A DNA stretch of 11,561 nucleotides from Candidatus Bathyarchaeia archaeon (lineage in GTDB: Archaea; Thermoproteota; Bathyarchaeia; Bathyarchaeales; Bathycorpusculaceae), in assembly GCA_049515895.1 (NCBI GenBank), contig JBEKTQ010000038.1:1-11561 (forward strand), given 5' to 3'. Positions within the stretch are counted from its first letter, which is position 1; each line of letters starts with the position of its first letter. The notes beneath the pieces were generated by a model. The model had not been told where the DNA came from, ran no database searches, and saw only the letters and a list, made by a program, of their open reading frames with translations. The position numbers and the translations under genes were made by a program. This document shows, one piece after another, positions 1,588-5,566 of this stretch.

Positions 1588-2418
1588 TTAGAAGGGTTTG
1601 AACAAGCCAGCAAACACAAGCCATACTAGCAGAGTTTTTGCAATGAAGCTGAGGATTATGTAAGCTCTCTCCCCAAAGAGATAGTCTTTCCAACGGCCGA
1701 CGCCTTTGTATTGAAGAACCATGTTGACAGCAAAGCTCATGAACAGAATTAGATAGATGATGAATATGGCGTAGACAAATTTTGGTACGCTGTTGTCACT
1801 TGCGATGATGTCGCCTGTGAAGTATCCAAAGAGAACAATCCAAGGGAAACCTCCAGAAATACTGCCTAAGATAAAAGCTGACCAGCTTGTTTTCTCGGTT
1901 TTCTGATTTATCTGCTCCATTAGGTAGCCGAACATAATCATCAAAGCGTTCAAAACAAATATCATTGCCAGCGACCAGAAATCCCAGATTCCAACGAAAG
2001 TGGCGATAACCCAGATCATAATTGAACTCGAAAAAGCGTATTCAAACCAGCGGTAGGGATTCATACCTTTTTTGAGGTTCTCGTTGTATGAGCGGTTTCT
2101 TGGAAAGGCAACAAGAAAGTGGTCAATAGCTGATATTATTGGGAAGGCTGCTAAGAGGGCGCCTATATGGGAGATTGTGAAAATTACCTGAGGGTTTGGC
2201 ACAGCAAAGATCATTGGGTTCGTTGCGCTAACGTGGGCAAATTTGAGGTAGAATGTGTAGATGTCAGTTCCTTTGGGCCACTTTAGTGCAAAAGTCAGTG
2301 ACAGAATGGCGATGCCATTTATCAATTGCAAGATGCCGGCGCCAATGTTAAATCTTTTAAGATAACCAAATGAAATTGGCGATCTGGCGATTATTTCTTG
2401 TCTTTCTTTATAGTTCAT
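1588..2418 (-). CDS. Heliorhodopsin (276 aa), atypical at several conserved positions
   Basis: Seven hydrophobic segments; LKRFN (TM1), SAIDH (TM2), NPYRWFEYAFSSSIM (TM3, counterion Glu codon 2041-2043), FGYLME, LQYKGVGRWKDYLFGERAYIILSFIAK (SxxxK, Schiff-base Lys codon 1636-1638). Start set at ATG 2418 because AAGGAGGTGA lies just upstream. Confidence 0.95.
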   Translation of the reverse strand: MNYKERQEIIARSPISFGYLKRFNIGAGILQLINGIAILSLTFALKWPKGTDIYTFYLKFAHVSATNPMIFAVPNPQVIFTISHIGALLAAFPIISAIDHFLVAFPRNRSYNENLKKGMNPYRWFEYAFSSSIMIWVIATFVGIWDFWSLAMIFVLNALMIMFGYLMEQINQKTEKTSWSAFILGSISGGFPWIVLFGYFTGDIIASDNSVPKFVYAIFIIYLILFMSFAVNMVLQYKGVGRWKDYLFGERAYIILSFIAKTLLVWLVFAGLFKPF

Positions 2419-2517
2419 TTTATTCACCTCCTTCAACGCGTGTAATTATTCTTTTGTTTTAGTGTGTCAATTTTTTGTTAATTCGATTTTTTGTTCGCGG
2501 TATTCATGAGTGTTTAA

Positions 2518-3303
2518 TCAGGAAATTTTTTTTCTGAATATGAGAATTGTTGCACCCAGTGTTATCACGCCGATAATTATGATGGAAATGAAGGCGTATT
2601 CTATTTTTTGCCAAACGAAACCGTTGATTATCAGTGACTGGAAGGCTTGGGCGATGTAAGTGAAAGGGTTAACTTTGGCGACTTGCTGCACCCAGCCTGG
2701 CAAAAGACCCAGTGGCATGACTGCAGCAGAGAGGAATAACAAGGGGAAAGTGGTGAGTAAGCCCACTGACAATGTAGTCTGTGAGCTTTTTGTGTTGAGG
2801 GCAACGAAAAGAGAGATTCCCGACCACGCGAAACCAAAGGCTGCGGATATAAATAGAACCATGAGGGCCCCAAGAATACCTGAGGCGATATGGACGCCTA
2901 AGGCTAGGCCGATGAGGAGTATGATTACAACTTGTATTATGGTGGTGATGGCGTCGCTGAAGAGTTTGCCGAATAGGATGGAGATCTTGTTTATTGGCGC
3001 TACTCTCATTTTGTCCATAAATCCGCTGTCGAGATCGTTGACTAATCCAAGGCCAGAACCTAGCGCCGAAGATGCAATAGTTTGAATAATGACCGCCGCG
3101 GTGAAGAATGTAATGTAGCTGCTTGTGCCTGTGAGCAATTTGAAAGTTGGGATGTTTCCAATTGCTGAGAAAGCCTGCGTGAACAGCAAAAACCATACTA
3201 ACGGTTGGATCAACGAGAAGAAGATCAAGATTGGCTGGCGCGTTAGCTTTGTGTTCCATCGTCCGAAAATGGCTGCTATTTCGGAAAGAACTTCCATCTT
3301 CAT
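2518..3303 (-). CDS. ABC-2 type transporter permease (DrrB-like)
   Basis: About six TM segments; LIQPLVWFLLF, DLDSGFMDKMRVAPI..ILFGK, LFLS..MP..LPGWVQ..VNPFTY motifs; starts 2 nt after the ATPase stop. Confidence 0.92.
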   Translation of the reverse strand: MKMEVLSEIAAIFGRWNTKLTRQPILIFFSLIQPLVWFLLFTQAFSAIGNIPTFKLLTGTSSYITFFTAAVIIQTIASSALGSGLGLVNDLDSGFMDKMRVAPINKISILFGKLFSDAITTIIQVVIILLIGLALGVHIASGILGALMVLFISAAFGFAWSGISLFVALNTKSSQTTLSVGLLTTFPLLFLSAAVMPLGLLPGWVQQVAKVNPFTYIAQAFQSLIINGFVWQKIEYAFISIIIIGVITLGATILIFRKKIS

Positions 3304-3305
3304 TT

Positions 3306-4319
3306 CTATCTGCCTCTTCTTGCGCCTGTTCGTACGGCTTCTTTTCGTTCAACCACATTCAGCGTTTTCCCCGTGAGTTTGAGAAAGACTTCGTCGAGTG
3401 TAGGCACTGAAAGGTTGATTTGCTCCATTGAGATACCCGCTCCGTCAATAGCTCTCACGATCTGTGTTAACATTGAGGAGCCATTTCTTGTAGAAATTGT
3501 GAGTCCGTTTTCCGCGGCTAAGCCCATGCCGCATTGTCCAACCGCTTCAACACCTTGAAGGTTAGACATCAATTCTTTGGCCTTCTCGCAGGCGCCGAGA
3601 TCTCCAGGCTTAAATCGGAGTGTGATTGTGTCGGCGCCAACTTGTGCCTTCAGTTCGGTAGGTTTGCCCTCCGCTACAATTTTGCCCTGGTCAACTATAC
3701 AGAGTCGATTAGCTAGGCGATCTGCCTCTTCCATGTATTGTGTGGTGAGAAAAATTGTCATACCATTCCTGTTTAGTTGAGTAACATAATCCCAAACGTC
3801 TTGCCGACTTTGAGGATCCAAACCTGTCGTTGGCTCGTCTAAGAAGAGGATTTCTGGATCTGAAACAAGGGAAGACGCTAGGTCCAAGCGTTTTCTCATG
3901 CCGCCCGAGAAGGTTTTCAATCTGCGATCAGCAGCCTCTTTCAGCCTCACTGTCTGCAATAACTCATCGACCTTTTTCTTAGCTTCCATTTTTGGGATAT
4001 GATGAAAACTGCATTGAAGCAAGAGATTCTCTCGAGCGGTGAGGTCATCGTCCACGCCAACATCTTGAGAGGAGTAACCTATTATCCGCCTGACCTGAGC
4101 CTGATCGGCATCCACATCTAACCCATCAATTGTGGCCTTTCCCGACGTCTTTTCAAGCAACGTCGTAAGGATTTTAATTGTTGTGCTTTTTCCTGCTCCA
4201 TTCGGACCCAGGAACCCAAATACCTCTCCTTTTTTGACGCTGAAAGAGATGCCGTCTACTGCAACGATATCTTTTCCATAGGTTTTTTTCAGATTTTCAA
4301 CTACTATTATATCTTCCAT
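3306..4319 (-). CDS. ABC transporter ATP-binding protein (DrrA-like)
   Basis: Walker A GPNGAGKST, signature FSGGMRKRL, Walker B/D-loop LFLDEPTTGLDP, LTTQYMEEAD switch, C-terminal PTLDEVFLKLTG; SD GGAGG upstream. Confidence 0.95.
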   Translation of the reverse strand: MEDIIVVENLKKTYGKDIVAVDGISFSVKKGEVFGFLGPNGAGKSTTIKILTTLLEKTSGKATIDGLDVDADQAQVRRIIGYSSQDVGVDDDLTARENLLLQCSFHHIPKMEAKKKVDELLQTVRLKEAADRRLKTFSGGMRKRLDLASSLVSDPEILFLDEPTTGLDPQSRQDVWDYVTQLNRNGMTIFLTTQYMEEADRLANRLCIVDQGKIVAEGKPTELKAQVGADTITLRFKPGDLGACEKAKELMSNLQGVEAVGQCGMGLAAENGLTISTRNGSSMLTQIVRAIDGAGISMEQINLSVPTLDEVFLKLTGKTLNVVERKEAVRTGARRGR

Positions 4320-4339
4320 ATCAATCCTCCAATTGATGA

Positions 4340-4350: not shown

Positions 4351-4375
4351 TGTTACGTTATTGGTAAGGACAGCC

Positions 4376-4792
4376 TCACTTTGGCATTAACACCTTGTCT
4401 ATTACGTGGATTACTCCGTTGTCTGCTTCGACGTCTGCTTTAATGATGTTAGCGTCGTTGACCTTGACTGATTTGTGCATGTGCCATTTTGCAGCGTCAA
4501 TCTTTACATCTTCACCTTGAAGTGTTGTTATGTTTTTGTGTTGTACTACGTCTGCCGCTGGGACTGCTCCTGCCACGACATGGTATGTTAGGATTGCTTT
4601 GAGTTTTGGTATGTCTTTTAAAAGTTTTTCAACTGTTCCATTTGGCAATTTTGCGAAAGCGTCGTCTGTGGGGGCGAAGACTGTGAATGGACCTGCGCTT
4701 TTTAGAGTGTCAACCAATCCGGCTGCTTGAACCGCCGCTACAAGTGTTTTGAAGGAACCAGCTGCAACAGCGGTATCAACTATATCTGCCAT
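4376..4792 (-). CDS. Fasciclin (FAS1) domain protein without signal peptide
   Basis: [20 protein letters not shown]1 motif [21 protein letters not shown]2 motif [20 protein letters not shown] upstream; the protein starts directly with the domain. Confidence 0.95.
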
Positions 4793-4835
4793 ATTCCTTT
4801 CACCTCCATTCGTCTTTTAGTACATGATTAAGTGG

Positions 4836-4912
4836 TTTACACATTGTAAAGAAAAACCTTATAAACTTTACTATCACTTAAATTAATAGACCTGTGCTTT
4901 ACTTTTAGTGAA
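4836..4912. promoter_or_regulatory. Three phased TTTAC-N5-GTAAA-like boxes, candidate Lrp/AsnC operator
   Basis: TTTACacattGTAAA 4836-4850 (perfect), TTTACtatcaCTTAA 4867-4881, TTTACttttaGTGAA 4898-4912; starts exactly 31 bp apart. Confidence 0.7.
4858..4876 (-). promoter_or_regulatory. BRE/TATA promoter of the fasciclin-ABC-heliorhodopsin unit
   Basis: Minus strand reads GATAGTAAAG-TTTATAA-G, about 70 nt upstream of the fasciclin ATG. Confidence 0.65.
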
Positions 4913-5002
4913 GCATTAACTTGAAACCGACGTATCAAAAACAATATTTGCAAGTCACGTGTGTATAACATTTCGCTGGATTTCACTTTCAGGAGAAAAA
5001 AC

Positions 5003-5566
5003 GTGTCAAGAACAATTGACGAACTCGACCTTAGAATATTGAAGTCTCTGAGCGAAGACTCTAGAAAACCCACCGCCCAAATAGCTAAGGAAGCGGGAAC
5101 CTCAAGACCAACAGCTACAGCAAGAATAGACGGACTCTTAAAAAACCAGATTATCGATTTCGGAGCCAAGATAAACATCCCAAACCTTGGATTAAAACTC
5201 GCAACAATACACTTCGAAACTGACAAAACTCACACAACCCAACAAGTCGTTGACACACTGAAAATCTGCCCACGAGTTCTCCAATTAGTCCAGCTTGCTG
5301 GAAAGCCAAACTACACGGCACTCATCTACGTTGAAGACGCTGACACACTTCTCTCAAGCATAGACTGCTTGGAATCCATCTTAAGAGTGAAGATAACATC
5401 TTATCAACGGGTTCTACCCCTCATCGGCAAATCATTCAATTTAAAAATCGTCCTTGAAAAATGCGAAAAAACTCCCTGCGGCAAAGAATGCGGACTTTGC
5501 TTAGCCTACCAACATAACGAATGCACTGGATGTCCTCCCACAAAAGAATACCGAGGACCAATATGA
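5003..5566 (+). CDS. Lrp/AsnC-family transcriptional regulator with C-terminal Cys cluster
   Basis: IDELDLRILKSLSEDSRKPTAQIAKEAGTSRPTATARIDGL HTH, a RAM-like domain (CPRVLQLVQLAGKPNY) and tail CEKTPCGKECGLCLAYQHNECTGCP; GTG start at 5003 behind AGGAG (4991-4995). Confidence 0.9.
   Translation: MSRTIDELDLRILKSLSEDSRKPTAQIAKEAGTSRPTATARIDGLLKNQIIDFGAKINIPNLGLKLATIHFETDKTHTTQQVVDTLKICPRVLQLVQLAGKPNYTALIYVEDADTLLSSIDCLESILRVKITSYQRVLPLIGKSFNLKIVLEKCEKTPCGKECGLCLAYQHNECTGCPPTKEYRGPI

Follow-up and report, generated by a model that had tools for sequence, protein, structure and literature searches.

What a heliorhodopsin (HeR) does in the cell has been debated since the discovery of the family, and the partners identified so far are few, comprising glutamine synthetase, photolyase and a single ABC exporter. 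An 11.5-kb contig (C38, taken whole and hereafter called the window) of a Bathyarchaeia genome (3.18 Mb in 53 contigs, 100% complete, 4.87% contamination) raises this question anew, as its HeR gene is packed together with genes for a fasciclin-domain protein (FAS1), an ABC transporter, a divergent Lrp/AsnC-type regulator, a SOUL protein and a short-chain dehydrogenase (SDR). What, then, could these genes do together? Our analysis confirms the cluster, shows that a single Bathyarchaeia family conserves it and ties it to HeR. As to its function, we give a probability of about one half to a light- and redox-stress module handling a hydrophobic pigment, as judged from gene content and sequence comparison.

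Four intact genes lie head to tail on the minus strand in the order FAS1, ATPase, permease and HeR, with spacers of 56, 2 and 99 nt, respectively; Shine-Dalgarno sequences of the GGAGG type stand ahead of FAS1, ATPase and HeR, and that of the permease is weak (coordinates are collected in Table 1). An earlier description of this DNA made from its letters alone, which we call the sequence-only reading, had reported four co-oriented intact genes with these spacers, strong Shine-Dalgarno sequences before three of them and a divergent Cys-rich Lrp regulator. Inspection of the sequence together with Pfam and NCBIfam searches bore out all of this, the regulator on the plus strand combining an AsnC-type helix-turn-helix (HTH) with a Cys-rich tail. 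The four operon genes and Lrp were thus correctly recognized, and SOUL and SDR, which belong to the same conserved set, were missed. HeR, SOUL, SDR and Lrp are each single-copy in the 3.18-Mb genome and all lie inside 5.7 kb, so that their clustering goes beyond chance.

The identity of HeR is well founded. The protein matches PF18761 with 287 bits (cut-off 26.7) and the NF038020 equivalog with 319.4 bits (cut-off 100), and it aligns with TaHeR (6is6; E 2e-51) including the AKT/AKS and RWFEY motifs. Lys261, Glu126 and His100 are invariant in all 61 sequences of an alignment (A1) built from 81 HeRs after over-extended, frameshifted and contig-end copies had been excluded. Following the TaHeR and 48C12 structures, we take Lys261, in the last helix, to be the Schiff-base lysine and Glu126, in helix 3, to be the counterion. 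The His of the first transmembrane helix is replaced by Gln in the window, as in 28 of the 61 sequences. All nearest relatives of this HeR come from metagenome-assembled genomes of Bathyarchaeia.

We assessed conservation in a HeR-centred sample of 80 Bathyarchaeia loci (HeR 63-89% identical) and a permease-centred sample of 80 metagenome loci. In the former, neighbours were counted at 35% identity or more and 60% coverage, and locus genes were called at 45-60% identity and 50% coverage; counts in the latter required at least 40% identity and 40% coverage, with 60% identity for ATPase and permease. Where HeR was at least 77% identical (37 loci), FAS1 was present in 23 loci, SOUL in 24, the permease in 15, SDR in 8 and Lrp in 5, versus none, 6 and 1 for FAS1, SOUL and permease among the 43 loci with more distant HeRs. 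The single permease of the latter group (L080) is an ortholog of the same transporter joined to a HeR of a different clade (63% identity). Conversely, HeR was found in 24 of the 80 permease-centred loci, and in 14 of the 18 that offer at least 3 kb on both sides; of these 18 loci, 12 have FAS1, 11 SOUL and 5 Lrp. From the two samples plus the window we obtained 33 loci with HeR, ATPase and permease, in which nine gene families are arranged in 27 orders. HeR shares the strand of the ABC genes in 30 of 33, being downstream of them in 22 and upstream in 8, and in the other 3 it is upstream and oppositely oriented; in L005 and L092 it sits between FAS1 and ATPase. The outer flanking genes are mostly unshared among loci. 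The sequence-only reading had named a gene order not conserved in relatives among the findings that would speak against it; these loci show the cluster kept there, though shuffled, and so do not refute it.

Co-occurrence was then scored in 150 genomes of the same family, 48 of which carry HeR. The permease ortholog (77-81% identity) was present in five genomes, all five with HeR, which it adjoins in four. SOUL occurred in ten, all with HeR and within 2.5 kb of it in seven; FAS1 at 69% identity or more in nine, eight of them with HeR; and the SDR ortholog in seven, six with HeR and three with both genes adjoining. Staygreen (HeR in 5/6 genomes) and strong UvdE matches (HeR in 10/13) followed the same trend. 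Similarly, over this family sample and a class-wide sample, 10 of 12 other genomes in which the permease ortholog was found also hold HeR, no further than 3.5 kb away in nine; in one exception (G478, permease without HeR) the contig end falls within the module, and the other (G459) is a genuine counter-example.

A separate matter is whether the contig belongs to this genome. Mis-binning of C38 was considered, given that HeR was found in none of the five same-genus genomes of the family sample, and was dropped because the permease ortholog turned up in 6 of the 40 same-genus genomes of a wider class sample, four of these six also having HeR.

Table 1. Genes and signals of the heliorhodopsin locus in the window
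Feature	Position	Strand	Remarks
T6 and T5 runs	1565..1576	-	12-25 nt past the HeR stop; likely terminator
Heliorhodopsin (HeR)	1588..2418	-	276 aa, ATG at 2418; PF18761, NF038020
ABC-2 permease	2518..3303	-	261 aa; ABC2_membrane PF01061, 82.3 bits
DrrA-type ABC ATPase	3306..4319	-	337 aa; ABC_tran PF00005, DrrA1-3 C-terminal domain PF13732, NCBIfam TIGR01188
T9 run between FAS1 and ATPase	4341..4349	-	the window's only 9-base homopolymer run
FAS1	4376..4792	-	single-domain, 138 aa, first gene of the operon; Pfam Fasciclin PF02469, 144.6 bits, 2.2e-42
15-bp palindrome TTTACAATGTGTAAA (minus-strand reading)	4836..4850	.	8 nt past the TATA box, over the expected transcription start; putative operator
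TATA box TTTATAAG of the FAS1 operon promoter	4858..4865	-	A-rich stretch resembling a B recognition element (BRE) immediately upstream
Lrp/AsnC-type regulator with Cys-rich tail	5003..5566	+	divergent; reading frame open from 4961
ATP10-like gene remnant	5563..5727	+	~54 codons, between regulator and SOUL
SOUL (haem-binding protein family)	5732..6247	+	171 aa; PF04832
Short-chain dehydrogenase (SDR), LPOR/RDH-like branch	6353..7240	-	295 aa; adh_short, 136.7 bits
Nitroreductase-family protein	7506..8003	+	PF00881; loose member of the neighbourhood

Signals in the DNA delineate how the cluster may be transcribed. The single TATA box noted by the sequence-only reading was located ahead of FAS1 (TTTATAAG, 4858-4865), and the block AAAGTTTATAAG is kept in the relatives in which Lrp is linked to the cluster. 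The palindrome TTTACAATGTGTAAA that follows the TATA box has its sole exact match in the window there and recurs in 13 of 18 spacers between divergent Lrp and FAS1 genes, with two copies in five of them. A 15-bp AT-centred palindromic site is of the kind that Lrp proteins use, and we regard this one as the putative operator of the Cys-rich Lrp, to which the regulator would bind. The claim of a dedicated regulator looks sound, given a palindrome placed just after the FAS1 TATA box both in the window and in those 13 of 18 spacers. The same palindrome was also seen 105 nt upstream of HeR in two loci (L009:3998 and L012:7896) that lack FAS1, ABC and Lrp genes up to a distance of 8 kb, and a search of the L009 genome with the Lrp protein of the window returned no homolog.

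A run of at least six T follows FAS1 in 36 of 41 FAS1-ATPase spacers, versus 8 of 97 control stretches of 100 nt taken upstream of HeR. The T9 run of the window is likely an archaeal terminator or attenuator, which would leave FAS1 in excess over the pump. The 99-nt spacer between permease and HeR is devoid of T-runs, and T6 and T5 runs at 1565-1576 follow the HeR stop, which agrees with the sequence-only reading (no T-run in that spacer, a terminator after HeR); the signals listed there hold, and the conserved T-run after FAS1 and the palindromic operator had escaped it.

In many relatives, HeR carries a conserved upstream element of its own. An upstream element holding TAATTAA precedes HeR in 31 of 51 loci, versus 133 of 21,980 background stretches, and a small gene of 57 codons diverges from it. 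The HeR of the window has lost both, which agrees with its being transcribed together with the pump here; HeR is probably on the same transcript as the ABC genes. The placement of HeR in the operon is thus supported for the window by operon-like spacing and by the T-run-free spacer, and it fits less well the many relatives with an own element ahead of HeR and one genome (G459) in which the pump is HeR-free.

The small gene deserves a description in its own right. The 57-aa Cys-rich open reading frame (ORF) lies ~136 nt upstream of HeR in divergent orientation in 26 of 161 sources, shares the TAATTAA element with it and has no Pfam match. Its product (e.g., L015:4751-4921, minus strand) is 91-98% identical in 25 sources and 70% in L036, and the adjoining HeRs are 77-89% identical. 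In the window genome this ORF resides on another contig, away from HeR (G000:C11:8657-8827). A conserved spacer of ~370 nt upstream of HeR in relatives, considered as a regulatory RNA, was rejected, as it corresponds to this gene on the other strand.

Two further features of HeR genes emerged from the relatives. The start-codon position is non-canonical in 18 of 83 matches (ATA 13, ATT 2, TTA 2, ATC 1; including L002, L010, L014, L015, L021, L024-L028, L031-L034, L036, L044 and L074), whereas the window has ATG (2416-2418). A perfect GGAGG precedes these codons by 7-8 nt, (I/L)NYKERQEIIAK is kept as N-terminal peptide, and an in-frame canonical start exists upstream in only 3 of the 18 cases (L003, L024, L026). 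This suggests non-canonical initiation, which would perhaps serve to hold HeR levels low. Broken HeR copies, with stops or a frameshift, were also encountered beside intact-looking FAS1, ABC and SOUL genes (G112:C9:22902-23644; L173, i.e., G493:C7, 4454-5276; L044; L074).

The regulator matches the AsnC-type HTH PF13404 with 41.7 bits (cut-off 27), and the AlphaFold2 model predicts, besides a confident HTH, a beta-alpha-beta-beta-alpha-beta domain at residues 65-137 with predicted local distance difference test (pLDDT) values of 80-90. In both respects it resembles the archaeal Lrp/AsnC proteins (FFRP), from which it differs in that its match to the RAM domain PF01037 stays under the cut-off (18.7 versus 25 bits) and in carrying an extra 35-residue tail (residues 153-187, pLDDT <50). 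This tail contains five Cys spaced C-x3-C-x2-C-x7-C-x2-C, invariant in all 35 sequences of an alignment (A4) made of the window protein and 34 of 120 listed homologs. No Pfam family matched the last 43 residues above its cut-off, the only sub-threshold match being Tsg_N. At least 128 homologs exist, mostly of 187 aa. The most likely start is GTG 5003, because the resulting 187-aa protein has the length of most of the 120 listed homologs; the sequence-only reading, which began the gene at 4961, requires correction here. Lrp proteins of ~190 aa are widespread in archaea according to a protein atlas. Two further genomes have a paralogous regulator beside a FAS1-ATPase pair, and another has one beside an MMPL gene.

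The ATPase belongs to the drrA subfamily (TIGR01188, 355.4 bits versus a cut-off of 312.45) and has the corresponding C-terminal domain (PF13732, 36.6 versus 27.4). The permease finds its best NCBIfam match in drrB (TIGR01247) at 102.7 bits, far under the cut-off of 223.05, and qualifies above threshold for the generic PF01061 only. With the DrrAB daunorubicin exporters (ABC-2, type V) the pair shares the drrA-type ATPase and the ABC2_membrane family; it differs from them in the low drrB score and in the lack of an antibiotic biosynthesis context here. ABC-2 systems without a binding protein are exporters.

FAS1 has no signal peptide or leader. By sequence it is close to Rhodobacter sphaeroides Fdp, aligned over the full length (9e-37), and to cytosolic CupS, aligned from residue 1 (2e-35). 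CupS of the cyanobacterial NDH-1MS complex (6tjv_Q, 2mxa) is likewise one leaderless FAS1 domain of ~140 aa, but it is a subunit of a respiratory complex, and no such complex is encoded in the window. Algal AstaP (8c18) is also a single FAS1 domain of ~140 aa, with far weaker similarity to the window protein (7e-14 versus 2e-35 for CupS); its chains rank 18th to 20th among the PDB matches of the window protein, behind TGFBIp, periostin, Fdp, CupS, LRC6 and MPT70. AstaP shows that a hydrophobic pigment can be held by a FAS1 domain, and photo-oxidative stress induces it. According to its structure paper, carotenoid binding arose by neofunctionalisation in green algae, and a FAS1 homolog from cyanobacteria does not bind carotenoids. 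As a precedent, put forward by the sequence-only reading, AstaP therefore stands insofar as it binds carotenoid and is weakened by the closer kinship of the window FAS1 to Fdp and CupS and by that non-binding homolog. A carotenoid-binding assay by expression in carotenoid-producing Escherichia coli is available (PMC10147662). An alignment of 22 FAS1 sequences (A2; the window, 19 locus FAS1 genes and two paralogs of the same genome) displayed a W-H-x-H-K motif at residues 103-107, with W103 and H106 invariant and H104 kept in at least 90%. The two paralogs, on contigs C9 and C32, showed no clear link to ABC genes.

On the other side of the regulator, SOUL matches PF04832 along positions 1-172 of 173 (136.3 bits), lacks a signal peptide and resembles HEBP2 structures weakly (~1e-6). 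The best PDB match of SDR is 3rd5, followed by light-dependent protochlorophyllide reductases (LPOR) at 1e-20. To capture the wider island, neighbours were clustered without bias and their representatives searched against Pfam. Recurrent HeR neighbours were PNPOx-like, DUF523+DUF1722, UvdE, alpha/beta hydrolase, DUF6512, AhpC, MsrA, Staygreen and TspO-like membrane proteins, which make up a damage-repair and tetrapyrrole theme. Directly 3' of the permease, in the 82 cases with at least 500 nt of downstream sequence, the gene is most often HeR (17), followed by TspO-like (11), SOUL (10) and DUF6512 (7). A nitroreductase gene accompanied HeR in 4 of the 37 loci with close HeRs and in 4 of the 43 with distant ones. 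While the sequence-only reading captured the operon genes, it did not see the island of UvdE, MsrA, AhpC, PNPOx-like, TspO-like and Staygreen genes. These surroundings point to photo-oxidative and tetrapyrrole handling at least as strongly as to the two functions proposed there, a light-gated ABC transporter or a chromophore-logistics module.

The scheme that we infer runs as follows. One promoter, composed of the TATA box and the palindromic operator, would drive FAS1, and the T-run would damp read-through into ATPase and permease; a FAS1 binder made in excess fits the T-runs that follow FAS1 in 36 of 41 loci. In the window genome, HeR would share the transcript of the pump and act as light sensor, and the Cys tail of the regulator could sense redox state or metal. 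The ABC-2 exporter would remove or relocate a pigment that is hydrophobic and photosensitising (a tetrapyrrole or a breakdown product of one being most plausible), for which abundant cytosolic FAS1 together with SOUL may provide a soluble binder. Lrp, SOUL and the SDR, related to LPOR and to retinol dehydrogenases (RDH), would complete the functional set. A bolder version, in which HeR physically contacts and gates the exporter, FAS1 with SOUL hands over the cargo, and light drives export of photosensitising tetrapyrroles or chlorophyll breakdown products acquired from plant litter, is distinctly doubtful. Prediction of a HeR-FAS1 complex from 61 and 22 sequences, run without controls, gave a score of 0.00, which is evidence neither way. 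If true, this version would mean that an anaerobic archaeon detoxifies itself by a light-gated pump, and an archaeal heliorhodopsin would for the first time have a defined output.

Several observations weigh against a stress module for pigments. Matches to TspO clear the cut-off of 24 by a small margin only (24.4 and 30.8 bits). Searches of the window genome found no TspO-like, Staygreen, PNPOx-like or DUF6512 gene, no clear UvdE ortholog and no photolyase, so that in this genome the tetrapyrrole theme comes down to SOUL and SDR, and the cyanobacterial FAS1 homolog of the AstaP structure paper bound no carotenoids. G459, a closed genome in one contig, encodes ATPase, permease and a TspO-like protein with no HeR, FAS1 or SOUL, and as it keeps the pump without HeR, the pump does not strictly need HeR. 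In the family sample, the pump is absent from 43 of the 48 genomes with HeR. Finally, the co-occurrence counts overstate the support, since related genomes are not independent. The minimal HeR-free pump unit of G459 (L170, G459:C1:950000-968000) also has a broken PNPOx-like gene.

The main rival to the stress-module reading is retinoid supply, which we hold to be unlikely. Cells that do not synthesize retinal would use SDR as a retinol/retinal dehydrogenase, FAS1 and/or SOUL as soluble carrier and the ABC-2 protein as flippase for a retinoid or a retinal-lipid adduct, much as ABCA4 and RDH work in vertebrate photoreceptors. That no carotenoid or retinal genes are present, as the sequence-only reading had stated for the window, applies genome-wide to phytoene synthase and RPE65-type oxygenase, both absent in searches whose controls were positive; Blh was likewise not found, in a search whose control stayed silent. 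Such a genome suits an imported retinoid, and orthologs of SOUL, FAS1, permease and SDR occur almost only in HeR genomes, as dedicated accessory factors would. The pump, however, is of a kind that exports, its occurrence without HeR in G459 is at odds with a supply line to HeR, and UvdE, MsrA and AhpC are repair genes that fit a supply chain poorly. SDRs near HeRs have been proposed as retinol dehydrogenases (10.1101/2021.02.01.429150) and RDH-type genes reported in Bathyarchaeota (PMC7110647), but past 3rd5 the nearest solved relatives of the window SDR are protochlorophyllide reductases, a ranking to be read with the possibly poor coverage of RDHs in the PDB in mind. FAS1, too, has closer kin in CupS and Fdp than in AstaP, which binds carotenoids. 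Moreover, retinal is membrane-soluble and HeR efficiently captures it when added from outside (Shihoya et al. 2019, as conveyed by a citing passage), so no carrier or pump seems needed.

A looser arrangement, in which FAS1, the ABC-2 pump and Lrp form a general efflux or lipid-handling unit, HeR acts elsewhere and stress genes merely gather in a variable island, strikes us as improbable as well. Membership of the island does vary, with 27 orders in 33 loci; 4 of the 18 well-flanked permease loci have no HeR within 8 kb; one genome has its Lrp-FAS1-ABC unit 23 kb from HeR; G459 dispenses with HeR; many relatives equip HeR with its own upstream element and divergent small gene; and a survey of HeR neighbourhoods finds the stress families not unique to them (10.1101/2021.02.16.431466). 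Separate jobs are harder to reconcile with the permease ortholog accompanied by HeR in 10 of 12 other genomes, within 3.5 kb in nine (one of the two exceptions, G478, having its contig end inside the module), with L005 and L092, whose HeRs separate FAS1 from ATPase within the operon, and with the HeR from another clade joined to the same ABC ortholog in L080. It is very improbable that the adjacency is just gene order inherited among close relatives, with no functional meaning. All FAS1- or ABC-linked HeRs except L080 do fall into one clade of the HeR tree (FastTree, midpoint rooting, no support tests), through which ABC-linked loci are scattered, and permease orthologs (77-93% identity) are confined to one family, f1, in a class sample of 400 genomes (8/103 genomes there versus 0/297 elsewhere). 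Yet the outer flanks are unconserved and the module genes stay together through many rearrangements, co-occurrence with HeR spans several genera, and the spacing in the window is operon-grade.

Further features of the window were noted. The ATP10-like remnant is 40% identical over 45 aa (BLASTP, E 1e-8) to L087:2055-2549, a full gene that lies 3' of the regulator in that locus and matches Pfam ATP-synt_10. A 187-aa ORF at 9569-10132 (+) stops within an HTH_10 (Bat-type) domain, covering 20 of 53 profile positions, and a second short ORF follows in a different frame, which probably reflects a frameshift in a regulator gene. At 10662-11156 (+), only the C-terminal third of an Nramp transporter is open (profile positions 237-356 of 357), as in a truncated or broken gene. 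For the 159-aa ORF at 1053-1532 (+), convergent with HeR, Pfam and NCBIfam gave no match, and 79 of 80 HeR loci lack it. We rejected it as a module member, since the only locus to share it is L091, which has a permease fragment 100% identical to that of the window. An Rfam search of the window gave no match, and a scan for sigma-70 promoters and hairpins, of a type unsuited to archaea, returned fewer sites than shuffled sequences.

Part of this picture is already in print. In Ornithinimicrobium cerasi, OcHeR is reported to bind the ABC exporter OmrDE, with light enhancing its drug transport (Nat Commun 2024, PMC11109279), a precedent for a HeR acting on an ABC pump encoded in one predicted operon with it. 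The resemblance ends there: OmrDE is a heterodimer of two fused half-transporters modelled on TmrAB, whereas the window encodes a separate DrrA-type ATPase and ABC-2 permease, which belong to another fold class of transporters, and the host is a bacterium whose reported system does not include FAS1, SOUL or Lrp. The sequence-only reading was therefore mistaken in calling the published light-modulated transporter DrrAB-type; it is TmrAB-type, and neither 'DrrA' nor 'ABC-2' occurs in the text at PMC11109279. Chazan et al. (bioRxiv 10.1101/2021.02.16.431466) name SOUL, AhpC/TSA, PNPOx and transporters of the ABC and MFS types as HeR neighbours and state that no stress family is unique to these neighbourhoods, and Bulzu et al. 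(bioRxiv 10.1101/2021.02.01.429150) attribute to HeR a role in oxidative-stress mitigation and name nearby SDRs as possible retinol dehydrogenases. Between them, the two surveys cover SOUL (beside a Thermoplasmata HeR), AhpC/TSA, PNPOx, photolyase, transporters, adh_short and an oxidative-stress theme. Pan et al. (PMC7110647) report HeRs and RDH-type genes in metagenome-assembled genomes of Bathyarchaeota. The general theme of SOUL, AhpC, PNPOx and ABC transporters near HeRs is thus known. The main texts of the two surveys do not mention fasciclin or Bathyarchaeota, though their supplementary tables may list more, and as far as those texts go they contain no FAS1-ABC-2-HeR operon, no Cys-tailed Lrp with operator and no near-exclusive co-occurrence with HeR. 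Our literature search, which covered articles and not the supplementary data of HeR papers, where fasciclin may be listed, retrieved no paper pairing 'heliorhodopsin' with 'fasciclin'. With that reservation about supplementary tables, the combination appears as novel as the sequence-only reading had held: the FAS1-ABC-2-HeR operon, the Cys-tailed Lrp with its putative operator, the candidate attenuator after FAS1 and the finding that in Bathyarchaeia SOUL, FAS1 and pump are almost confined to genomes with HeR all appear to be undescribed.

For the heliorhodopsin family, the cluster supplies a handful of candidate partners, seen almost exclusively alongside HeR: FAS1, SOUL, the ABC-2 pump and SDR. 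A seemingly dedicated regulator with a defined putative operator comes with them, and in relatives the TspO-like protein joins the set. These candidates are small and expressible. For the organisms themselves, the cluster suggests a way for archaea that are abundant in peat and sediment, and that make no carotenoids, to cope with surface light.

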